Shown: piece by piece, positions 7,428 to 54,437 of the stretch
How the letters are laid out: every line of letters starts with the position of its first letter
How positions within the stretch are numbered: position 1 is the stretch's first letter
Virus record (IMG/VR): IMGVR_UViG_3300009370_000014
Coordinates: 1 to 64,000 of that record
Source of the DNA: a virus
Length of the DNA: 64,000 nt
Direction: 5' to 3' (one strand)
Made by a program: the position numbers and the translations under genes
The notes under the pieces: model-generated
Database searches by the model: none
What the model saw: the letters and a program-made list of their open reading frames with translations, nothing else
Told to the model about the DNA's origin: nothing

Positions 7428-7730
7428 CTACCATTCGGTCTCTTCCCAAAGACCGTTTTCAACGGCATATATATATGCCAGGACCCTTTTCTCCCATTCT
7501 TTCTTCCAGGGGGAGTTGGTACCACGTTTTTCAGGAGGTTCTATTTCCCTCCAAGATTTCTCTCCAAGAGCATCCAAAGAACAGCCCTCGATCTTATAAG
7601 TCCAGTATTCTTGGGACCCGTAAAGTATAACTCGGTATGAGTTAAACCCTGTAAGAGAACTGGTGAAATCCTGAGGGAGATCACCTTCCCAGATTTTCCG
7701 AGCAGTAGAAGCCATCATAGTCTCCTTCAT
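7428..7730 (-). CDS. hypothetical protein; start probably MMASTARK
   Basis: Leader nearly identical to that of 7093-7296 (AAGGAGACTATGATG). Confidence 0.65.
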   Translation of the reverse strand: MKETMMASTARKIWEGDLPQDFTSSLTGFNSYRVILYGSQEYWTYKIEGCSLDALGEKSWREIEPPEKRGTNSPWKKEWEKRVLAYIYAVENGLWEETEW

Positions 7731-16932: not shown

Positions 16933-16953
16933 ACAACCTCCTACTAGTTAGTC

Positions 16954-16991
16954 GTAGAAGCAGGAGGGGCTAAAGCCCACTCCTGTTCTAC
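16954..16991 (-). terminator. intergenic stem-loop, possible terminator
   Basis: GTAGAAGCAGGAG-GGGC TAAA GCCC-ACTCCTGTTCTAC inverted repeat. Confidence 0.55.
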
Positions 16992-17004
16992 GTCTACTTT
17001 AGGT

Positions 17005-17297: not shown

Positions 17298-17561
17298 CTA
17301 CCATATATGAAATTTCCATCTAGGCTGACGCCCCTGACGTATATGGTCTTCTAATATTGATTCCAGCTGGTTTCTAACTTGAGATATATGATTTTCGCAA
17401 GCATAAGAAATAGGAATAACATCTAAATACTCGCTACTAACTAATAACTGGTATATACCTTCTTTCCTTTGATAAAAGAAAACCAGTGCTTCTATGCGAC
17501 TACCTGTTTCACATCCTCTACATAGAGGAACTTGATACTCGGATAAATGTAAACAAGCCAT
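17298..17561 (-). CDS. hypothetical protein
   Basis: ORF on the dominant strand. Confidence 0.5.
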   Translation of the reverse strand: MACLHLSEYQVPLCRGCETGSRIEALVFFYQRKEGIYQLLVSSEYLDVIPISYACENHISQVRNQLESILEDHIRQGRQPRWKFHIW

Positions 17562-17619
17562 AATCTAATACCTACATTGAGAGAAGAAGAGCTCTCGAGC
17601 GCTGTCGACTTCTTTATTA

Positions 17620-18216
17620 TCGCATATCGGAGATATGCTTTACAATATTGCTTTATATGCAACTACTTACGTATTAGACTTTAAACTGCAACTTACAAAG
17701 TTCAGTAGTTACTACCGACAGACTAAGTAACCTCAGATTAGATTTTTGAATTTATTTTAGATAAGAACAATATACCTTGAAGCGAGAGATGCATTAATGA
17801 AGTTTGCATCTTCTTGCTCTAGGATATCTCTCCAGTACTCACGTTAGTGAGCAACACAATCTTGAGCTTAACTCGAGGGAGTACGTATAATTATTCTTAA
17901 ATATCAACACATATACAATAATTCCATGCTAACCTTACTATGATTTCGAAAATCTAAAAGATTTCTGTTTAACTTACTTAAGTTAAATGGAATTTTTAGA
18001 TTTGCGTTTTCATAGAAATTACAATACTAAGCTTAACTTAGTGAAGTACGAATTAATTACATATTGATATCTATGTATAGCTTACAAAGATATTAATAAT
18101 TTCAACAGAAAGCCTGCGTACACATCTCATTTTACCGGTACGCTCCTTGATTTATCAAGGGTGTATTGAAAAATGAGGATGCAAATACAATACCAAGGTT
18201 ACCTTAGTTAAGTACA
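17620..18216. ncRNA. candidate structured ncRNA array: four units of hairpin + ACAAT + 17-nt hairpin + NNNNTACR
   Basis: ACAAT at 17642, 17856, 18021 and 18187 (spacing 214, 165, 166), each followed by a 17-nt hairpin and TACG/TACA at the same offset. No ORF of 60 aa or more. G:T pairs favour folding of the plus strand. Confidence 0.6.
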
Positions 18217-18225
18217 AATTATTAG

Positions 18226-18429
18226 CTAGAACCCTTGGACATAATCATCTATAGTTCCATCTTCATCAACTATCGCTAAGCGAAAACCAAACTCTTTGGC
18301 TTCACAGACCAAATCCAGTAAAGCAAGTGCGTTGGCTATAATCTCTGACTCGCTACCAAAATTTGTTTTTTCTAAAAGTTCTTTGAATAAATCATCAAAA
18401 CTATCTTCTAAATTTATGATAAGGCCCAT
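18226..18429 (-). CDS. ribbon-helix-helix-like DNA-binding protein
   Basis: MGLIINL (strand), DDLFKELLEKT and SESEIIANALALL (two helices): CopG/RHH pattern; AGGAG RBS. Confidence 0.6.
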   Translation of the reverse strand: MGLIINLEDSFDDLFKELLEKTNFGSESEIIANALALLDLVCEAKEFGFRLAIVDEDGTIDDYVQGF

Positions 18430-18443
18430 GCTGACTCCTAATC

Positions 18444-18938
18444 TTAAATTAAACTAAAACTTAGTTGGAACATAGTATCAGTTTCTGGATTAGTATACAC
18501 TCGGAAACATTTATCTCTAGAAATATCAGTCATTCGATCTATAACTTTTAAAGTTAAGTTAACAATGCTAACGTCGCTCTCTTGGTAGAAGGCATTTAAC
18601 TTGTCTAATGTAGTACCTAAGAATTCAATATCAGGAGCATAATCTTTAAGTATTAGTTCAAGAACAGGTTCTCCTAACATTTCTTCTATTAGGTTACAGC
18701 AAGGGTAGTTTAGTTTATTTTTTCTACCTAGAAATTTTTTATGATCTATACTGCGACCCCATTTATCCATAAGAGGTAATGTTTTTTGAACTAAACCTTG
18801 TAAGATAACAACGATATCTTCATATCCGACATAAACGCCATCTTCAATGTCAGCCTCTACTCCCTCCCTGTAGTTTATTAGACTCGGGTTTTTGGATACT
18901 TTGAGCTGAACTCCGTTGTACGTGTTGAATAGTCCCAT
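18444..18938 (-). CDS. hypothetical protein
   Basis: ORF on the dominant strand. Confidence 0.6.
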   Translation of the reverse strand: MGLFNTYNGVQLKVSKNPSLINYREGVEADIEDGVYVGYEDIVVILQGLVQKTLPLMDKWGRSIDHKKFLGRKNKLNYPCCNLIEEMLGEPVLELILKDYAPDIEFLGTTLDKLNAFYQESDVSIVNLTLKVIDRMTDISRDKCFRVYTNPETDTMFQLSFSLI

Positions 18939-19322: not shown

Positions 19323-20258
19323 TTAAACTAATGACCATTTTCTCTCAATTAATTTTATACAAAGCTTTTCTATTTTTTCATAATTTGGCTCTTGAGGCAG
19401 TATTTTGGGATCCGAGCCAGAGAGCGTATCCATACGTGTAAGGAGATTCTCCGATTCTTCAATGATATGACTATAATTCCATTCCCCATTTCTTATTGAT
19501 GACAGCTCTTTCCAGTCTGGTCGAAGTACCAGTACTTTTCCCGTTTCCAAGATTTCCACTCCCATGCGGAGTAACCGTATGCAATCAAACGCATGCTCAG
19601 TATCATACTTTACTTCCCCGATTAGATTAACTTTCTTTTCATCTTTCCATGATTTATATTTTTTATAGTAAGCCATTTTAAGTTTATACGTTTTACCGTG
19701 AAACCATGAAAACGACTTAGCATCTCCAAAATAAGCTTTAACGCGTTCTTTATCTACATGTTGGGGGAACTCATCATGGGGAATATTGAAAAAGTTATCT
19801 ATTTCTTTTATTTGTTGTTGGCTAATAGGAAGCTTAAAAGCACCTGGATGCTCAGGAGGATTGTCCCATCGTTTATATTCTTGCAATTTTTTGAGCTTAA
19901 ACTTGGCATACGCTTTAAACGTATTTTCAGCTTTCTGTGATAGAAATATATCTCGATGTTCTAAAAGCTCTTCTCCTACACTGTCTATATGAAGTATATT
20001 TTTCTTATCTGTAAATAAGACTTCCAGTATATTGGGATTACATTCACTAGCTCGCTTACAAAAAGTTCTGATTTCATACATAACTGCATTTGAATCTTTA
20101 GACTCAAGTGGGTTAAGTTTAGTAAAAGGAGAGGTATAGTATCTACGTTCTGGGATATAAACACCTTTCTCCTGTCTAGAACTATCTTTTCTCTCAACTC
20201 CATAAGCATGTGATCCACATAATACTTTTAATACATCCCAATTTTGGCTACACGTCAT
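19323..20258 (-). CDS. Pol-beta-family nucleotidyltransferase (YcgL/RlaP-like), catalytic DxD apparently lost
   Basis: GSHAYG, YEIRTFCK...CNPNILEVLF, YDTEHAFDCIRLLRMGVEILETGKV, IRNGEW. Confidence 0.8.
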   Translation of the reverse strand: MTCSQNWDVLKVLCGSHAYGVERKDSSRQEKGVYIPERRYYTSPFTKLNPLESKDSNAVMYEIRTFCKRASECNPNILEVLFTDKKNILHIDSVGEELLEHRDIFLSQKAENTFKAYAKFKLKKLQEYKRWDNPPEHPGAFKLPISQQQIKEIDNFFNIPHDEFPQHVDKERVKAYFGDAKSFSWFHGKTYKLKMAYYKKYKSWKDEKKVNLIGEVKYDTEHAFDCIRLLRMGVEILETGKVLVLRPDWKELSSIRNGEWNYSHIIEESENLLTRMDTLSGSDPKILPQEPNYEKIEKLCIKLIERKWSLV

Positions 20259-20888: not shown

Positions 20889-21176
20889 TCATAAAGAAAG
20901 ATCTTCTTTTTCTTTTTTAACTACTTCTATTACTTGATTAAAGTTAAGTGACCATAATTTATCTATATTGTTAAACGGGAGACATATTTTAGTTTTATCT
21001 TTAAATTCTAATATTATATTATGGCTGTCAAACCAAACTAAGTAGCCCTTGTACTCTTCACCTTTTACTTCAGCAATTAATAACTCTGTCTTATAGTGCT
21101 CTAAGAATAATAGGGCTACCTGGACTCTTCGAGGATCTTTACTATTCTTGGACCAAATAACTCTTTCTTTTTCCAT
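20889..21176 (-). CDS. Sm/LSm/Hfq-like fold protein (putative)
   Basis: N-terminal helix then KGEEYKGYLVWFDSHNIIL...ICLPFNNIDKL, resembling the Sm1 and Sm2 motifs. Confidence 0.5.
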   Translation of the reverse strand: MEKERVIWSKNSKDPRRVQVALLFLEHYKTELLIAEVKGEEYKGYLVWFDSHNIILEFKDKTKICLPFNNIDKLWSLNFNQVIEVVKKEKEDLSL

Positions 21177-23230: not shown

Positions 23231-23231
23231 A

Positions 23232-23311
23232 CCACTGGAGTAGGATTCGAACCTACGTCTTCAAGGGCATTACCTTGCTGCTAAAGCCTTGCACTACTCA
23301 GCTATCCAGTG
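23232..23311 (-). ncRNA. tRNA-like element with an aberrant D-arm and a 6-nt 'anticodon' loop
   Basis: Acceptor CACTGGA/TCCAGTG; T-arm GTAGG TTCGAAT CCTAC; stem CAAGG-TAATGC-CCTTG. Confidence 0.65.
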
Positions 23312-23322
23312 ATAAAACATTG

Positions 23323-23919: not shown

Positions 23920-23998
23920 TACGGAGATCCGGATTTGAACCGGAAACTCATAGCTTTTTTATAAACCATGTGAAATGCGCTAATTTTTCTATCTCCGT
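23920..23998 (-). ncRNA. tRNA-like element with an oversized 'anticodon' loop
   Basis: Acceptor ACGGAGA/TCTCCGT; T-arm TCCGG TTCAAAT CCGGA; stem CATGG...CTATG with a 12-nt loop. Confidence 0.65.
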
Positions 23999-24102: not shown

Positions 24103-25866
24103 TCAAATTTGGTTTATCAAGAAAGCATCTACTGCAAGAACTTGATGTTTACTAACTATATCACTAAGAGTATTAATTTGCTTACCTGCTCTAGTCGGTA
24201 TAACTTGAGTACTTTCTGCTTTTAAAATCATAGTAATAATTTTTTCGCTGAAACCCCCTAAGAGGTTTACTCTTGGATGATTAGCTTTCGCCATAGACAC
24301 CTGGGAAGCTGTTAAGTCTACACTATGTAACCATACATCTGGATTAATCTTTTTTCGATAACTTATAAGATTATCTTCAAAAGTCTTGCGACTAAATCTC
24401 TCTCCATAAGTCTGTAAATCTGAAAGTATAATTATTCTGTCTACTTTAATATCGTTCGTAATTAAGTAACTAATGCATGATCCAGCGTCTGTCCCATGTC
24501 CATGGATCCTTTCATGCTTACTTAGCTCTTCGGCATTCTGTATAAGTGATCCACCTCTCACTAAAATTATAGGAGCAACTATACTTCCAAAAGGAAAAGC
24601 AAACGATTCTTTACTTTTAGCATGGAAAATAGCTCCTAGCAGATTACCTATTTCCCCACAGGACATCGTTGACTTTCTTGATACAGGCGCACACATGCTT
24701 CCGCTGTTGTCAATGAATACTGCGGTATTTCCTGGAATATCTGCTAAATTTTGAATACTGATCTTTAAACATTTTTCAATCTTATTTAAAATTTCATCAG
24801 TAGATAATTCAGAGTCTAGATCTCGAATAGCTTTATACGCCGCATAATATCTAAAGGGTAATTGTTTACTATTTAGAACTTTCTTTTCATCGGATATTTT
24901 TGCAATAATAGAATCTAAGCCAGATACTTGGTGTTCTATAGCATTACGTAGATTTCGTAAAGTAGCCATATAAGGCATAAAGTTAAATGCTGCACTCCAA
25001 ACTTGTTGTTTCTCTTTTTCAGCTTCTGGCCGATTTCCCATTGCAGATACAAAATTCTCCCAAGTTAACCCAGCTTCCTTAGCTATAGAGGCTAAATTTT
25101 CAATACTAGCAGTATTCGATATAGAATAAAACTCTTTACGTGCTTGTAAAATCCTAGGAGCCGTATCTACCACTTTATTATTTACAAGAAATTCAAACAT
25201 AGCTTTACTTATAGGGAATCCTTCTTTATGGCGAAATCTTTTAGGGAGTATGCCTCCTCTAATTGAAAGTAGTAAGTCTTTGAAGTTAGGATGTTGAGTT
25301 GGCTTATTGTACTTAATTAGAGAATATGAACTGTATGTCATTAATGCAAAAGCCATACCTTTCTGCAAGCACCCTGGTATATTAGCTCTAGGATATCCCT
25401 CTTCCCATGTACCAAACAAACAGTTGTATATTTCCAATAGTTGCAACAAATCATCAGGTCTACTACATACAGCAGGAACATATCTACTTACAGGGTTCAT
25501 AGTCTTGTCATCTCCTCTAATATATTTACTAGCTACAGCGACTAGTAGTTGAGGAAATAGACGCATATGCATCTCTTGTCTTGCCCATTTAGCGATACAT
25601 AGAAGATTTTCTGGATTATCACCTTTAGCTATCTTAATAGCTGTATTTAAAATATCAGTTCCTCGTTCATCAAGAACCTTATCGTTAAATTCATTATTCG
25701 ACGCAATAGCAGCATCTGGATAGAATCCTGGCTCACCCATGTACGCCACCGAAGCAATTAGCTTCTCGGCTGGATTAGATATCGAGTAGACTATACCACT
25801 CTCCTTATTTAGTACAATACTGGTGTCCATTGTAGCCTTACTTTTATTAAATCCAACTTTTGCCAT
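24103..25866 (-). CDS. Ro60/Rsr TROVE-domain RNA-binding protein with a C-terminal vWA domain
   Basis: WARQEMHMR, RPDDL, GLTWENFVS, MPYMATLRNLRN, SKQLPFRYYAAY, vWA MIDAS FIDNSGSM, GHGTD, RIIILSDLQ. Confidence 0.92.
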   Translation of the reverse strand: MAKVGFNKSKATMDTSIVLNKESGIVYSISNPAEKLIASVAYMGEPGFYPDAAIASNNEFNDKVLDERGTDILNTAIKIAKGDNPENLLCIAKWARQEMHMRLFPQLLVAVASKYIRGDDKTMNPVSRYVPAVCSRPDDLLQLLEIYNCLFGTWEEGYPRANIPGCLQKGMAFALMTYSSYSLIKYNKPTQHPNFKDLLLSIRGGILPKRFRHKEGFPISKAMFEFLVNNKVVDTAPRILQARKEFYSISNTASIENLASIAKEAGLTWENFVSAMGNRPEAEKEKQQVWSAAFNFMPYMATLRNLRNAIEHQVSGLDSIIAKISDEKKVLNSKQLPFRYYAAYKAIRDLDSELSTDEILNKIEKCLKISIQNLADIPGNTAVFIDNSGSMCAPVSRKSTMSCGEIGNLLGAIFHAKSKESFAFPFGSIVAPIILVRGGSLIQNAEELSKHERIHGHGTDAGSCISYLITNDIKVDRIIILSDLQTYGERFSRKTFEDNLISYRKKINPDVWLHSVDLTASQVSMAKANHPRVNLLGGFSEKIITMILKAESTQVIPTRAGKQINTLSDIVSKHQVLAVDAFLINQI

Positions 25867-29646: not shown

Positions 29647-30454
29647 TTTTAAGTTTATACTTTCTAAGATCTCTCTTATTTAATTGTTTTTTTTCTATGC
29701 AGCGCTGTCCTTTTTTATAAACCCTTATTAAATCATTAAAACTAACTTTCCTTTGGAAAAGATAATCATAATAATTCTCCCAACTACGGTATTTTGATTC
29801 AGGAGTTGATATAGATTCATATTTTACCCAATACCAGATATCATTTAATCCTTTAGCTAAATTATAATTATTTTTAAATAAAAATCTTTTAGGATATTCT
29901 TTTTTTCGATCCCAAGTATCTGTTTTTTCTCGCAAGCAAAGTATGCCTTCGGGATTAACGTATAGTAACTCATCGTAAGGTTGAAATTTATATAATTTAT
30001 TATCTCCATCAGAGTTAATAATTTCAGTGTAAGGTACACAAATTTCATTATCTTCATAAAAAGTATAAGTCTGAACTAAATCTTTAATATGATTTCTAAG
30101 ATGATACCCTCTAATATTTCTATTATCGGTATCTTTACAAATATCGGAGTATACGTTATTCCATTTATCTCCAACTCTAGACCTTAAGGTTCTCCATAAA
30201 GGACCTAGTCTATCTGTCATCTGTTTAGAGCTATACCTTCTTCTAGGTAACATTCTTTCAGTAGCAAGATCTTTAGGCCATTTATCTGATCTTCTTCGTG
30301 ATCTATAGTTAAATCTCTTGCTATTACATCGACCAGTATCAATGATAATATGTTTCATGCTTCTCTTCATATTTCCCCTATAAGATATCGTTTTAGATAA
30401 GTTTACTACTTGATTCCTTAGAAATAAGACTCTCCTTTCCAAACCAAGTACCAT
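29630..30454 (-). CDS. basic hypothetical protein; start probably MKRSMKH
   Basis: LGPLWRTLRSRVGDKWNNVYSDIC, LYVNPEGILC. Confidence 0.7.
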   Translation of the reverse strand: MVLGLERRVLFLRNQVVNLSKTISYRGNMKRSMKHIIIDTGRCNSKRFNYRSRRRSDKWPKDLATERMLPRRRYSSKQMTDRLGPLWRTLRSRVGDKWNNVYSDICKDTDNRNIRGYHLRNHIKDLVQTYTFYEDNEICVPYTEIINSDGDNKLYKFQPYDELLYVNPEGILCLREKTDTWDRKKEYPKRFLFKNNYNLAKGLNDIWYWVKYESISTPESKYRSWENYYDYLFQRKVSFNDLIRVYKKGQRCIEKKQLNKRDLRKYKLKNGSSN

Positions 30455-31061
30455 ATTTGAATTTAGACGGATAATTATCCCACTCGATCCCTACTTTCGA
30501 AAGCATACAAAGGAGAGCCTCTTGATCTTTTCCGGCACACTCCTTACGGCTGAATCGCGAACATGCAGCTGATCGAATACTGTGTCTTTTAGCATCCTGT
30601 TGTCTCCAAATTAAAGCATTGCAAGCTTCGGTTAAGCTAGGGGTTTGAAAAGCACGACAATCAAACATAGGGATCTTCCCTGCATGAGCACCGGGCATAT
30701 TAATTAAAGCATTTGTATTAAAATAAATTGTACAAGCAGAAGCTAGAACAGATACCGTTTTCTGGATCCTACCCTCCAAAAAGGGTTGAGATTTATCTGA
30801 ATCATTTATAAATATCAAAGTAATCTCATCTGATTGAGTATACCCTATATCTGCTCCGACATGAGCTACCAGCTGTTTAGTAGTATCTTGCATAGTAGTA
30901 ACCATGCGTTCATCAAAAGGCTTGTCTAAATTTTTTGTATAGCTGCTAAAATCATGTCCATCTAGCATGACTACTATAGGTAAGAAGGGAGTAAATATAC
31001 GAGAAGCTTCTTTACTCTCATATGATTCCATGCGAACACTTAAGGGAATTTCACATCTCAC
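30393..31061 (-). CDS. tRNA-His guanylyltransferase Thg1-like protein
   Basis: RMESYE, VMLDGHDFSSYT, KPFD, GYTQSDEITL, GRIQK, FDCRAF, WRQQDA. Confidence 0.92.
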   Translation of the reverse strand: MRCEIPLSVRMESYESKEASRIFTPFLPIVVMLDGHDFSSYTKNLDKPFDERMVTTMQDTTKQLVAHVGADIGYTQSDEITLIFINDSDKSQPFLEGRIQKTVSVLASACTIYFNTNALINMPGAHAGKIPMFDCRAFQTPSLTEACNALIWRQQDAKRHSIRSAACSRFSRKECAGKDQEALLCMLSKVGIEWDNYPSKFKYGTWFGKESLISKESSSKLI

Positions 31062-31893: not shown

Positions 31894-31969
31894 AAGTTGA
31901 TTCCTGTTTTACACTTTAAAATTTTAAGTAATATAACTGTAATAGAATCTTAAAACGTTTTCATGATTT

Positions 31970-32320
31970 GCACCCATTTAAACCAGGCTACGCCTTTGGT
32001 TAGAATGCTCTTACAATTCAAAAGTATATTTTGATAGGTACAAAGCGCTTTAGATGTAGGATCTAAAAATTACAATTAAAGCTTTTAATTAGCCCTTCAA
32101 GCTGGGGAGGGTATGTAGGTAATCCTAACACCACCAAGCATATATATTTTAGCATTAAGTAGCTAAGTCTTGCTTAACAAGATAAAGTACAAGGGCTTTG
32201 CGATATAGAATCTGTCAAGAAATATAGCACGCTGCAGCCGTCTCGGCGGAGTGCTGCTCCAGGGCTAGGAGACAAGCTTAGCGTAGCTAACAAGTACATC
32301 TTATCTGTAGAAGATAATAG
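31970..32320. ncRNA. second candidate structured ncRNA locus sharing the 17.6-18.2 kb motif
   Basis: Hairpin + ACAAT (32013) + TCAAAAGTATATTTTGA + TAGGTACA; GTCTTGCTTAACAAGAT + AAAGTACA (32167-32191); a third shortened copy ending AAGTAC at 32292; dense hairpins, no ORF. Confidence 0.5.
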
Positions 32321-32335
32321 TTACACAGAGTTCTT

Positions 32336-51506: not shown

Positions 51507-51647
51507 TCATTTGGACATGTCATTTGAGTCGTCCTTAGACATATAAGCCATAATATCAAAGCCTAGGGAGATAGACTCTAGACAAAGAGAATCTTTATCA
51601 GTCTTAATATGTTTCTCCAGTGCTTTTAGTAATCTTTTAATAATCAT
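51507..51647 (-). CDS. 46-aa protein translationally coupled to the RT; not in the ORF track
   Basis: ATG overlaps the RT stop (ATGA); MIIKRLLKALEKHIKTDKDSLCLESISLGFDIMAYMSKDDSNDMSK. Confidence 0.5.
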   Translation of the reverse strand: MIIKRLLKALEKHIKTDKDSLCLESISLGFDIMAYMSKDDSNDMSK

Positions 51648-52777
51648 AGTATCGGAATCTCCGTTATTAATTCATTATAACCTTTAGTTTTTAGTATAAA
51701 ATCGAATTTATCTTTTAGTTTTTTTCCTTTTATTTCATTAACTTGGATAAAATAATTAATCTGTCCTCGAATCCACTCTAAAAATTGAATTTCTGTTCGA
51801 TTTGTTTTAGCAGCCTCCTTAGCGATGCTATTTTGAGTCATGTTATGCAAGATACATTTTAATAATTCACGCTTCCGACGTAAGAGATCAGGCTTATCGT
51901 TTACCACCATACCTAAGACGTATTGTCTAGCTGGAGTCCTGTATACTTTTGTCTTACGGGTATTCAAAGTAAATCCTTTAGAGCTAAGAACATCAGACAT
52001 CTTAGTTATAACAGTATCTATCTCACTTTTTACATATACGTTTCCTTCTTTATCAGTATATTCTTTTTTTTCAAAATCTTTATCTGTACTTAAAGTTATG
52101 TCATCAGCATATCTAGTATAGGCAAACCCTGCATCTCTAGCAAGTTTACGTAAATCCTCATCAAAATAGAAGTGACCTACTAAATTAGATATAGTAGGAG
52201 AAGTAGGTGCTCCCTCAGGTACAAAAAATTTAAATGTGCAAAGCTCTGAGAGATACCTGGATACATTATCAGGATACTTAAAATGTTTCTGAAATAACTC
52301 GTATAAGTGTTTCTGCTTAATTGAATTGAAGTAATGTCTGAGATCTAGAGAAACAACAATCTTTTTGTTAGCATGTACTTTAGCCGTATCTCTAGTCTTT
52401 TTTCCTTTTCTAAATCCTGTAATATAATCGGGTAGGAAAGTATCAGCAGGATCTAGTATCTTTCGTTTTATCTGTTTCTGAACATACATCATGCAATCTT
52501 TAGGCTCCTGTAATTTTCGAAACTTTCCTTTATTAGACTTACCTTTTTTAGGAATACTCCAAAACTTATATTGCTGATTTTTATCTTTACGTAACCAATT
52601 AACAGTTCTTTTTTTTACTCCTAATGTATCTGCAAGCATACCTATATCAAGAATCACTGGAAATCCCGAAGTTTCTTGATACTTTAAAATGGAACTTAGA
52701 TCACAAATTTCAAATAAAGAGGGATTAACTCCTTGAAAACCTACTTGCTCTAAACGATAAGGTGATATTTCTATCAT
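51644..52777 (-). CDS. retron-type reverse transcriptase
   Basis: RKLQEP, GFRKGK..TAKVH (NAxxH-like), LDLRHYFNSI, PEGAPTSPTISN, YTRYADDITLS, GFTLNTRKT, VLGMVVN (VTG-like). Confidence 0.92.
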   Translation of the reverse strand: MIEISPYRLEQVGFQGVNPSLFEICDLSSILKYQETSGFPVILDIGMLADTLGVKKRTVNWLRKDKNQQYKFWSIPKKGKSNKGKFRKLQEPKDCMMYVQKQIKRKILDPADTFLPDYITGFRKGKKTRDTAKVHANKKIVVSLDLRHYFNSIKQKHLYELFQKHFKYPDNVSRYLSELCTFKFFVPEGAPTSPTISNLVGHFYFDEDLRKLARDAGFAYTRYADDITLSTDKDFEKKEYTDKEGNVYVKSEIDTVITKMSDVLSSKGFTLNTRKTKVYRTPARQYVLGMVVNDKPDLLRRKRELLKCILHNMTQNSIAKEAAKTNRTEIQFLEWIRGQINYFIQVNEIKGKKLKDKFDFILKTKGYNELITEIPIL

Positions 52778-54437
52778 GAAAATATTCTCTCCAGCTCAGT
52801 ACAAAGCAGAAAATTCTGACGTTATGCAGGGACTTTCTAAATCTCAATTTGCTGAGTCAGTAATGCGACTAAAAGGTCAAAGATATAGTTTAGATAGATA
52901 TCCTATGTTCAGGGCTATTTATAATGTTAGTGACGAGGTAACTGAGACACTGTTAAAGACAGGAAGACAAGTTTCTAAGTCTACTTTTAATGCTAAAGAG
53001 ATACTTGTAGATTCAATGAGAATCCCTCATTTAAATACATTATTCGTAACTCCTCTACAGGAGCAAACAGCCCGTTTCAGTAGGAACTATTTAGGGGAAG
53101 GTATAGCGAATACCCCTTTTATACAAAAGTATTTTTGGCACACAATGTGTCAAAATAATATTTTCTCTAGAGGATTATCAAACGGTAGTCTTGTTCAATT
53201 AACTTACTCCTTGTTAGATGCGGAACGCGCTAGGGGAATACCTGCTGACAAGTTAGTATTTGATGAAGTCCAAGACATACCTATAGACAACATACCTATC
53301 ATTAATGAGTGTCTATCTGCTTCTCCTTATAAATGGAAAACTTATACTGGAACTCCTAAAACATTAGACAACACTATAGAGTATTATTGGCTTAAATCTA
53401 CAATGTGTGAATGGGGAGTTATATGTCCTTTCTGTAGAAATATGAATATACCTGATGATGATCATGTTTGGGATATGATTGGACCGCAAGGACCTATTTG
53501 CCTTAAATGTAAAGCAGATCTACGGAATGATATTCATAAAGGAACTTGGGTTACTACAAATAAGGATTATTTAAATGCAGAGGTAGTTGGGTTTCACTTA
53601 CCTCAAATTATTATGCCCATTCATTACGATAGTAAGAAAGCTTGGAAAGAACTACTAATCAAGAAAAATAGGTATTCTCCTGCACAGTTTGCCAACGAAT
53701 GCTTAGGGTTAAGTTATGATCAAGGAGGCAGATTACTTACCCTGTCAGAACTTAAGTCAGTATCTACAGGTCGTGTTTGGGAGAAATGGGATCCTGATAT
53801 TCCTATTGAACATGCTTTTGCAGGAATTGATTGGGGCATTTCAGCACAAACTAGTTACACTGTCTTAGTCATAGGAGGAATAGATCCTTTAGATAAAAGA
53901 TTTAAGGTAGTATATATCAAAAAATTCTACTCCACGGATACGCTTGATCAGATTGACCAAATTATCGGAATCTGTAAGAACTTTAATGTACTACGTATAG
54001 GAGCAGATGTAGGTGTAGGACATACTAACAATCTCATACTTGATGAAAATTATGGGATTCATAGAGTCTTTAAAATGAACTATACAGCAACTCGTAAAAG
54101 AGTTCTCGAATATAATAAACGAGGTTTCTTCTCTTTGGATAGAACTATATCTTTAAACCTTATGTTTATGGCTATAAAGCAAGGACAAGTAGAGTTTCCT
54201 TCTGAATCATTTATGGATTTATTTTATCCAGATTTCATGACTATGTACGAAGAGATCGTAGAATCACGACGAGGTATTTCTAAAGTATTTACTCGAAATC
54301 CTAAAATTCCTGATGACGTAGTTCATGCTCTTAATTTTTGTATGTTCACAGCTTACAAATACTATGATCATGAATACACTCGTATGGCTACTAATCATGA
54401 TTTTCTTGTGGATGATGAATTAGGACTTGAGTTCTAA
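52776..54437 (+). CDS. terL: terminase large subunit
   Basis: Walker A KTGRQVSKST, Walker B FDEVQD, TGTPK, nuclease AGIDWG, PDDVVHA; internal CxxC pairs. Confidence 0.9.
   Translation: MKIFSPAQYKAENSDVMQGLSKSQFAESVMRLKGQRYSLDRYPMFRAIYNVSDEVTETLLKTGRQVSKSTFNAKEILVDSMRIPHLNTLFVTPLQEQTARFSRNYLGEGIANTPFIQKYFWHTMCQNNIFSRGLSNGSLVQLTYSLLDAERARGIPADKLVFDEVQDIPIDNIPIINECLSASPYKWKTYTGTPKTLDNTIEYYWLKSTMCEWGVICPFCRNMNIPDDDHVWDMIGPQGPICLKCKADLRNDIHKGTWVTTNKDYLNAEVVGFHLPQIIMPIHYDSKKAWKELLIKKNRYSPAQFANECLGLSYDQGGRLLTLSELKSVSTGRVWEKWDPDIPIEHAFAGIDWGISAQTSYTVLVIGGIDPLDKRFKVVYIKKFYSTDTLDQIDQIIGICKNFNVLRIGADVGVGHTNNLILDENYGIHRVFKMNYTATRKRVLEYNKRGFFSLDRTISLNLMFMAIKQGQVEFPSESFMDLFYPDFMTMYEEIVESRRGISKVFTRNPKIPDDVVHALNFCMFTAYKYYDHEYTRMATNHDFLVDDELGLEF

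Follow-up and report, generated by a model that had tools for sequence, protein, structure and literature searches.

An array of short hairpin motifs, interspersed with longer unit-specific hairpins, occupies a gap free of open reading frames (ORFs) at positions 17562-18225 on the plus strand of an uncultured phage genome, and we find it to be a real, conserved and unclassified element with a two-strand signature. The window that we analysed is a 64,000-nt stretch (bases 1-64000) of the 72,073-nt IMG/VR record IMGVR_UViG_3300009370_000014, which is rated 63% complete. Our tentative reading is that the array is a set of structured noncoding RNA modules of the plus strand, each preceded by a hairpin initiation signal on the template strand with a geometry resembling that of the phages N4 and LUZ7.

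The gap is bounded by genes for an 87-amino-acid protein (17298-17561, minus strand) and a 67-amino-acid protein (18226-18429, minus strand), and is the second largest in the record. An initial annotation of this DNA had described it as devoid of genes, and we agree: neither strand of 17731-18225 holds an ORF of 30 amino acids or more, and no long open frame emerged when one stop codon was read as sense. The repeated motif spans 39 nt and is composed of TTACAAT, a hairpin with a 7-bp stem and a 3-nt loop, and AAGTAC. A repeat finder returned three strong copies that share 67-85% identity and start at 17852, 18017 and 18183, spaced 165 and 166 nt apart. The layout from ACAAT to AGTAC that had been proposed at the outset was recovered as the pattern ACAAT-N7-TTA-N9-AGTAC, which matched three times against 0.19 expected (0 of 100 shuffles reached three), always on the plus strand and never on the minus strand of the whole record. 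The GTAC tetramer is not avoided in general, with 221 occurrences observed against 232-246 expected.

Four units of like construction had been listed originally. That description is accurate for the strong copies u2 (17852-17890, hairpin 17861-17877), u3 (18017-18055, hairpin 18026-18042) and u4 (18183-18221, hairpin 18192-18208), the last of which terminates 5 nt short of the 67-amino-acid gene's stop codon. It fails for the first unit, u1 (17638-17676), where a 17-nt hairpin (17622-17638) is followed by a weak small hairpin (17647-17663). The list was also too short: a degenerate copy, u1b (17736-17774, hairpin 17745-17761), forms 6 of 7 pairs, and two more copies, g2a (32009-32047, hairpin at 32018) and g2b (32158-32196, hairpin at 32167), lie in a second ORF-free gap at 31894-32335. 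The window therefore holds seven copies, three strong and two weaker ones in the array and two in the second gap, all on the plus strand and opposite to the genes. Within the array, spacings span 98-166 nt, the values of 98 and 116 nt being distances between small-hairpin starts. A covariance model, R1, built from six motif copies recovered those six only (u1, 36.1 bits; u2, 39.4; u3, 47.2; u4, 44.2; g2a, 36.9; g2b, 33.3), and nothing else scored above 15.4 bits on either strand of 72,173 nt. With identities of 67-85% and spacings of 98-166 nt, the repeats are not the near-identical short repeats of a CRISPR or type III toxI-like array, a candidate that we rejected.

The same arrangement is found in one other genome. 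L168, a 19-kb Tara contig, encodes a homologue of the RlaP-like protein of the window that is 60% identical, the next best being 38% identical among the matches listed in the metagenome contig scan; a JGI sequence (P0123) is 48% identical to the RlaP-like protein and lay outside the 80 loci listed in that scan. In L168, homologues of the 67-amino-acid gene (85% identity) and of the 87-amino-acid gene (63%) flank an ORF-poor gap of 547 nt. R1 matches this gap four times (38.7, 27.7, 26.2 and 25.4 bits), after which the score drops to 11.6 bits. As they do in the window, the copies run opposite to the genes, and all 11 copies from the two phages share one orientation and sit in ORF-free gaps. 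The motif spacings in L168 are 132, 132 and 160 nt, and the number of units differs from that in the window. When the two gaps were aligned, conservation was seen in the motif copies, in unit 1 and in an A+T-rich block of 53 nt that follows u2, with u1b aligning with the L168 copy at 7552-7590. The stretches between these conserved parts could be aligned only partly or not at all, and the long hairpins had diverged in sequence, while the neighbouring proteins are 60-85% identical. L168 also has a 109-amino-acid ORF on the array strand, which we treated as a chance occurrence because the window has no counterpart.

The array is known from these two genomes only. A covariance-model search of relatives had been suggested, and it succeeded in L168; IMG/VR and GenBank contained no usable relative. 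Matches to the motif pattern in IMG/VR (83 loci) came singly, with no locus holding two copies, and we attribute them to chance; of the 13 loci among these in which 6 of the 7 stem positions still paired, 12 shared one recurring sequence unrelated to the phage array. Among 185,579 prokaryote genomes at least 120 loci carried the pattern, each with a single match among the matches listed, and these too were set aside as chance.

The claim that the stems change while pairing is kept was borne out by an alignment of the 11 small hairpins (seven from the window, four from L168), in which 7 pairs across 11 copies give 77 cells. On the plus strand 64 of the 77 cells are paired (13 unpaired) and on the minus strand 70 (7 unpaired). 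All seven stem pairs have changed on both sides, the covariation score was reached by 0 of 500 shuffles on either strand, and pairing fell to 26-48% when the partner was shifted by 1-3 columns. The comparison of u4 between the window and L168 illustrates both the covariation and its strand dependence, since two pairs carry substitutions in both partners (one G-C pair replaced by A-T, another by T-A) and two T-to-C changes produce A/C on the plus strand and G-T on the minus strand. The conserved letters of the motif lie in its flanks, TTACAAT preceding the stem and AAGTAC following it, and the G of AAGTAC falls 12 nt from the loop centre in six of the seven window copies. The loop on the template strand is mostly TAA, and the small stems are A+T-rich. 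Selection acts on the small hairpin in its paired form; pairing is no worse on the minus strand than on the plus strand, and is probably better.

At least four unrelated stem sequences occur among the copies, and this bears directly on the idea that the small palindromes are duplex operators of the adjacent 67-amino-acid protein, possibly a ribbon-helix-helix (RHH) protein. We consider that idea very unlikely. The gene does abut the array in both phages, its product is the best conserved of the nearby proteins (85% identity), and the inner half-sites of u1b to u4 share AAG...CTT. Unrelated stems that all keep their pairing nevertheless fit a hairpin, not one protein's sequence-specific site, and so argue against a sequence-specific duplex operator. 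The RHH-like assignment made initially persists as a language-model lead, to RHH_1 clusters in which 23-37% of members carry the family; searches of the protein against Pfam, PADLOC and NCBIfam gave no match, its AlphaFold model has a mean pLDDT of 61, and Foldseek against the PDB found nothing below E = 1, so neither family nor fold supports it.

The longer unit-specific hairpins were found where they had been placed originally, and the gap as a whole folds far better than shuffled sequence, with z = -9.6 on the plus strand and -6.3 on the minus strand. We compared seven such hairpins between strands, namely hp2, hp3, hpA and hp4 of the window and X, Y and Z of L168, and every one was more stable on the plus strand, by 4.7-10.2 kcal/mol. 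The segment 17775-17851, made up of hp2 (17775-17823) and a short hairpin (17838-17851), folds at -20.6 kcal/mol on the plus strand against -15.0 on the minus strand. The corresponding values are -28.4 (3 G-U) against -21.4 (0 G-U, 2 A/C) for hp3 (17938-18015), -13.1 against -8.4 for hpA (18062-18098), and -28.2 (5 G-U) against -20.6 (2 G-U, 3 A/C) for hp4 (18115-18183). Together the seven contain 21 G-U pairs and no A/C on the plus strand, compared with 6 G-U and 8 A/C on the minus strand. Since the minus strand folds better by about 2 kcal per 100 nt across the record, this plus-strand bias runs counter to the background. It indicates that the functional form of the long hairpins is a plus-strand single-stranded nucleic acid, most simply an RNA antisense to the neighbouring genes. 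The initial annotation had stated that G:T pairs favour the plus strand; this is true of the long hairpins, whereas the small hairpin leans to the minus strand.

The simplest account of small hairpins that pair better on the minus strand and long hairpins that pair better on the plus strand is a hairpin signal on the template strand with a product in the plus sense. We therefore propose, tentatively, that the gap is a row of small, independently evolving noncoding RNA modules that would be read from the plus strand, antisense to all neighbouring genes. The 39-nt signal separating the modules would be an initiation signal that acts as a DNA hairpin on the template (minus) strand; transcription would start at the G of AAGTAC, 12 nt downstream of the loop centre, and each start would give rise to an RNA carrying the next long hairpin. 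The production of RNA, the start positions and the polymerase that reads the signal are the parts of this scheme that we infer. Candidate roles for such RNAs would be as decoys or sponges, in antisense control of the flanking small genes, or as partners of the nearby RNA-repair genes; in a search for antisense targets of the array elsewhere in the genome we found 6 shared 13-mers against 5.3 in shuffles. The initial annotation had favoured an array of processed RNAs and had named hairpin promoters as an alternative. A structured noncoding array on the plus strand, opposite to the genes and kept in L168, stands, but processing fits the strand pattern less well than hairpin promoters do, although no matching polymerase was found in the record.

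The geometry of the signal fits action as a hairpin promoter. The virion RNA polymerase of N4 and the polymerases of LUZ7 (early and middle promoters) recognise template-strand hairpins. The early promoters of N4 have stems of 5-7 bp and a 3-nt loop centred at -11, and the stem bases may vary as long as they pair (PMC4496689); the early promoters of LUZ7 have a 3-nt loop and a start at G 13-14 nt from the hairpin centre, and some are arranged in tandem (PMC9163698). With these the array signal shares a short stem, a 3-nt loop, variable but paired stem bases and clustering of copies; action on the template strand and a start 11-14 nt from the loop centre, often at G, are traits that it may share, and the strand preferences fit the first of them. 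All 11 copies have a stem of seven positions and a 3-nt loop. We suggest, with the same reserve as above, that the signal may work like the N4 and LUZ7 promoters, and we do not claim that it belongs to them, because the contact bases are absent, the signal has an extra box upstream (TTACAAT), no polymerase was found, and the signals face away from the genes with no ORFs downstream. The contact bases of the N4 type that the array copies lack are a purine at the loop centre within a G+C-rich heptamer, -10G, -8G and +1C. Nor is the phage a Schitovirus as far as can be seen, since its terminase is lambda gpA-like and 32% identical to that of the closest cultured phage. Our literature searches, which were not aimed at this exact layout, returned no matching description of it.

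Several observations weigh against this proposal. The 72,073-nt record contains no T7-like RNA polymerase domain (PF00940), a result that does not establish the absence of such a polymerase from the phage, because the record lacks 37% of the genome and PF00940 had no match in the control genomes either. The bases specific to N4 (the G+C-rich heptamer, -10G and -8G) are not there, the signals point away from all genes with no ORF downstream, and transcription from u4 would run directly into the 67-amino-acid gene at its 3' end. The long hairpins are not followed by a U-run, which leaves the ending of the predicted RNAs unexplained, and the array has no intrinsic terminators, while gene-sense ones are present elsewhere. 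The minus-strand advantage of the small hairpin is modest, amounting to six cells, three of which belong to the loop-closing pair; when that pair is excluded the counts become 61 of 66 on the minus strand and 58 of 66 on the plus strand. Because the array occurs in two genomes only, part of the covariation among copies reflects the history of their duplication. The sequencing runs listed for the array stretch include no RNA run. In favour of the proposal, the same two genes flank the array in L168, and its layout was kept while the hairpin sequences diverged.

If the small and long hairpins acted in the same RNA, then both should avoid A/C on the plus strand. This prediction separates our proposal from an account in which a single plus-strand precursor of about 330-640 nt is made from a host-type promoter, with the motif serving as an RNA processing or protein-binding site by which the precursor would be cut or arranged into hairpin modules, or with the whole forming one multi-domain RNA. 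By hand count, the small hairpins of the 11 copies have 10 A/C on the plus strand (7 without the closing pair), and the long hairpins have none, which is unexpected for two parts of one RNA. The precursor account does explain the selection of the long hairpins on the plus strand, the z of -9.6 for the whole gap, and the fact that the array ends with a motif copy, as processing predicts. It also draws on sigma70-like sites. A plus-sense site, TTGAGC-18-TATAAT, lies at 17862-17891 in u2, and L168 has TTGAGT-18-TACAAT at the same place; no other sigma70-like site scores at matching positions in the two phages. A second plus-sense site in L168, TAAACA-17-TACAAT, overlaps the start of the 87-amino-acid gene inside an identical 28-nt block. 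Yet hp2 and the L168 hairpins X and Y favour the plus strand while lying upstream of the shared site at 17862, and no candidate nuclease is known. We judge a single precursor to be unlikely, though it comes closer than the other alternatives considered here. A further idea, in which the -35 and -10 boxes of split sigma70 promoters are joined when the long inverted repeats extrude, suffers from spacings that can be adjusted to fit and from hairpin boundaries that are too elastic.

Other sigma70-like sites in the gap run in the sense of the genes. The 53-nt A+T-rich block (17878-17930), free of hairpins and highly conserved in both phages, has sigma70-like sites on both strands, and the central conserved block of L168 contains a gene-sense TTGATT-17-AATAAT. 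The clearest case is u1, which overlaps a gene-sense TTGTAA-18-GATAAT with an extended -10 TG at 17645..17616. With its 17-nt hairpin, its weak small hairpin and a block that is nearly identical in L168, u1 is unlike the other units, and it is likely to be the promoter or 5' leader of the 87-amino-acid gene. We also observed that about 28 nt over the start codon and ribosome-binding region of this gene are identical in the two phages (17545-17576 in the window, 7795-7826 in L168), although the proteins are 63% identical, and that 17668-17678 can pair with its Shine-Dalgarno region, which would hide it, both arms being identical in L168.

These sites invite the alternative that the array is a gene-sense regulatory region between two transcription units, made of duplicated and partly decayed cassettes like the PeSL cassettes together with the leader of the 87-amino-acid gene, in which case the inverted repeats would act at the level of DNA. 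PeSL (promoter-early stem-loop) cassettes of T4-type phages consist of a repeated stem-loop with conserved promoter-like boxes in plastic intergenic regions, where close relatives differ by indels and replacements (PMC4122927). In the gene sense, u1 is a stem-loop followed directly by a promoter with an extended -10, which is exactly the PeSL layout; the L168 site in the central block and the Shine-Dalgarno pairing with its identical arms point the same way, and the number and content of units differ between the phages, as they do in PeSL-rich regions. But PeSLs lie between ORFs and in the gene sense, and the array copies have no ORFs between them. Only one of the five copies in the window array, u1, has a full sigma70-like promoter with a -10 box at the right distance, the others having none at 16-18 nt. 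The hairpins are selected on the opposite strand, and the plus-strand bias of all seven long hairpins is left unexplained by gene-sense or duplex-DNA action. We hold this alternative to be improbable for the array as a whole.

Signals that act on single strands, such as RSF1010 ssiA and ssiB, the ends of IS200/IS605 elements, and attC sites, typically form hairpins whose flanks are conserved and whose G-T pairing is strand-specific. On this basis the units could be single-stranded DNA signals, either ssi-like priming or origin hairpins that the primase of the phage would recognise, or targets of a recombinase that binds hairpins, in which case the long hairpins would be cassettes. The phage has its own primase-helicase, and unit content turns over between the window phage and L168, both of which suit the idea. 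However, GC skew shows no switch near 18 kb of the kind that marks a replication origin, the record has no known enzyme of the HUH or Y1 type, and the copies in the second gap need a separate explanation, so that we rate such signals as quite improbable.

The initial annotation had gone further and raised the possibility that a retron-type reverse transcriptase (RT) of the phage copies the units in trans, as templates of the msr/msd kind. Its assignment of the enzyme was correct. The RT (51644-52777, minus strand) belongs to the retron family and has the YADD motif, with a PADLOC match to RT_III-A at 1.8e-64 and retron Ec67, Kva2 and Ec86 as its best PDB matches. It stands head to head with the large terminase gene (52776-54437, plus strand). 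Relatives of the RT, 43-49% identical, have longest contigs of 77,073, 103,982, 107,651, 15,683, 14,200 and 55,680 nt, and longest contigs of these six sizes also recur among the terminase relatives. The terminase relatives on the contigs of 77,073, 103,982 and 107,651 nt, and on one more of 170,106 nt, are 59-67% identical. Judging from the matching sizes, RT and terminase seem to share the same six contigs and to form a pair conserved in an uncultured marine clade. We saw neither an effector gene nor an obvious msr/msd at the RT locus.

The proposed link between array and RT found no positive support, and we consider it highly improbable. In its favour, a true retron-family RT with YADD is conserved in a clade, and the fold scan found no strongly structured window adjoining it, so that its RNA partner is not evident locally. 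The units, about 130-165 nt in length, recall a retron in that a small stem-loop precedes an imperfect hairpin 50-85 nt long; the long hairpins are msd-like in size and on the plus strand follow the small hairpin as msd follows msr. A retron RNA is encoded beside its RT and transcribed with it, but the array lies 33.4 kb away on the opposite strand, and its units are in tandem, each with its own hairpin. If the units were retron-like, flank complementarity of the a1/a2 type, which positions the priming G, would be expected, but for three units it was no better than in shuffles on the plus strand (z = -1.0, -1.4 and +0.7), and what pairing was seen comes from the palindromic motif itself. The small hairpin, as the would-be msr, and the long hairpins, as the would-be msd, favour opposite strands. 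About 180 nt upstream of the conserved N-terminus of the RT may be noncoding and could hold the RT's own RNA. The RlaP-like neighbour of the array was not seen on the six contigs of RT and terminase relatives, an observation that is silent on the array itself. A hybrid of this link with our proposal, in which plus-strand modules with their own template-strand signals would be RNA partners or templates of an orphan RT in a trans-acting, multi-template retron-like system owned by the phage, seems to us equally improbable. A retron-family RT conserved next to the terminase in a lytic-looking phage clade merits separate study.

Known families of structured RNA did not account for the array. In the window, nothing except the transfer-messenger RNA (tmRNA) and tRNAs reached its Rfam gathering score, and 17300-18500 gave no E-value below 1. 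The best Rfam 15 score in the array region was 21 bits against a gathering score of 50, and the possibility of a match to ROOL, GOLLD or another known family, raised at the outset, can be put aside. Like ROOL and GOLLD, the array is a structured noncoding region of several hundred nucleotides in a phage with tRNA and tmRNA genes; a modular repeat layout is not known to be a feature of either family. The tandem early promoters A1-A3 of T7 lie in a noncoding leader and are ordinary host promoters aimed at early genes. The array would resemble them in its series of at least three putative initiation signals, set about 125-165 nt from one another where no ORF lies, and differs in that theirs are host promoters that point into early genes.

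The second gap (31894-32335), which holds g2a and g2b, adjoins the tmRNA gene and has no Rfam match. Beyond g2b it continues as a G+C-rich structured stretch (32184-32335) that folds at -44.1 kcal/mol on the plus strand (z = -2.7, 6 G-U) and -40.0 on the minus strand. A short gap between two small genes (16933-17004) has one of the record's most stable local folds on both strands, with z of about -4.5 on the plus strand and about -4.3 on the minus strand in a 100-nt scan.

The window has a G+C content of 35%, and nearly all of its genes lie on the minus strand. They include those of a tailed phage (gpA-like large terminase, portal, DNA polymerase A, primase-helicase, class II ribonucleotide reductase and thymidylate synthase) and several of RNA metabolism (an RlaP-like nucleotidyltransferase at 19323-20258, Ro60/TROVE at 24103-25866, Thg1-like at 30393-31061, tRNAs and tmRNA). 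The stretch 15000-38500 has the character of an RNA-repair or RNA-metabolism island, with genes for an HD-domain YfbR-like protein, the RlaP-like protein, an AAA ATPase, Ro60/TROVE and the Thg1-like protein as well as the tmRNA and five tRNAs, and may be a counter-measure to host defences that target tRNA. No cultured phage is close, the best terminase match being the 32% noted above. GenBank phages contained no close DNA relative and no match to the 67-amino-acid protein. In IMG/VR, neither the RlaP-like protein nor the DNA polymerase, each searched singly, retrieved a relative, the 67-amino-acid protein had no match, and the best terminase was 38% identical. The DNA runs that hold the stretch are labelled as marine metagenomes, and four of them yielded a single variant contig (3 changes, 1 deletion), which was uninformative.

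Three further features of the island were noted. A 95-amino-acid ORF (20889-21176, minus strand), 2.7 kb from the array, has sub-cut-off matches to two Sm-fold/SH3 families, the RimP C-terminal domain (E = 5e-4) and Hfq (E = 6e-3), and could be an RNA chaperone. A tRNA-like element (23920-23998, minus strand) just downstream of the Ro60/TROVE gene was overlooked by ARAGORN and by the whole-window Rfam run, but its score on the Rfam tRNA model, 46.3 bits, lies above the gathering score of 29; an acceptor-like stem of 8 bp and a canonical T arm are present, and its other arms are odd. Its position and form make it a candidate Y RNA of the YrlA type that would partner the phage Ro60. The array itself had been a candidate for such a Y RNA and was rejected, as it has no tRNA-like module and this better candidate adjoins the Ro60 gene. 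Finally, the 82-nt tRNA-Cys called by ARAGORN at 23231-23312 (minus strand) reaches 22.4 bits on the Rfam tRNA model, below the gathering score, and may be a degenerate or tRNA-like gene.

Should the promoter reading fail, the array would still be a conserved, unclassified structured element outside every Rfam family. If that reading is true, then hairpin-type initiation signals are not confined to N4-like phages, and the phage offers a testable set of noncoding RNAs whose initiation signal and whose product are selected on opposite strands. Two gene-free regions of an uncultured marine phage lineage would then be given over to structured RNAs in antisense orientation, and these regions would lie inside a block of RNA-repair genes comprising RlaP-like, Ro60/TROVE and Thg1-like genes, tRNAs and tmRNA.

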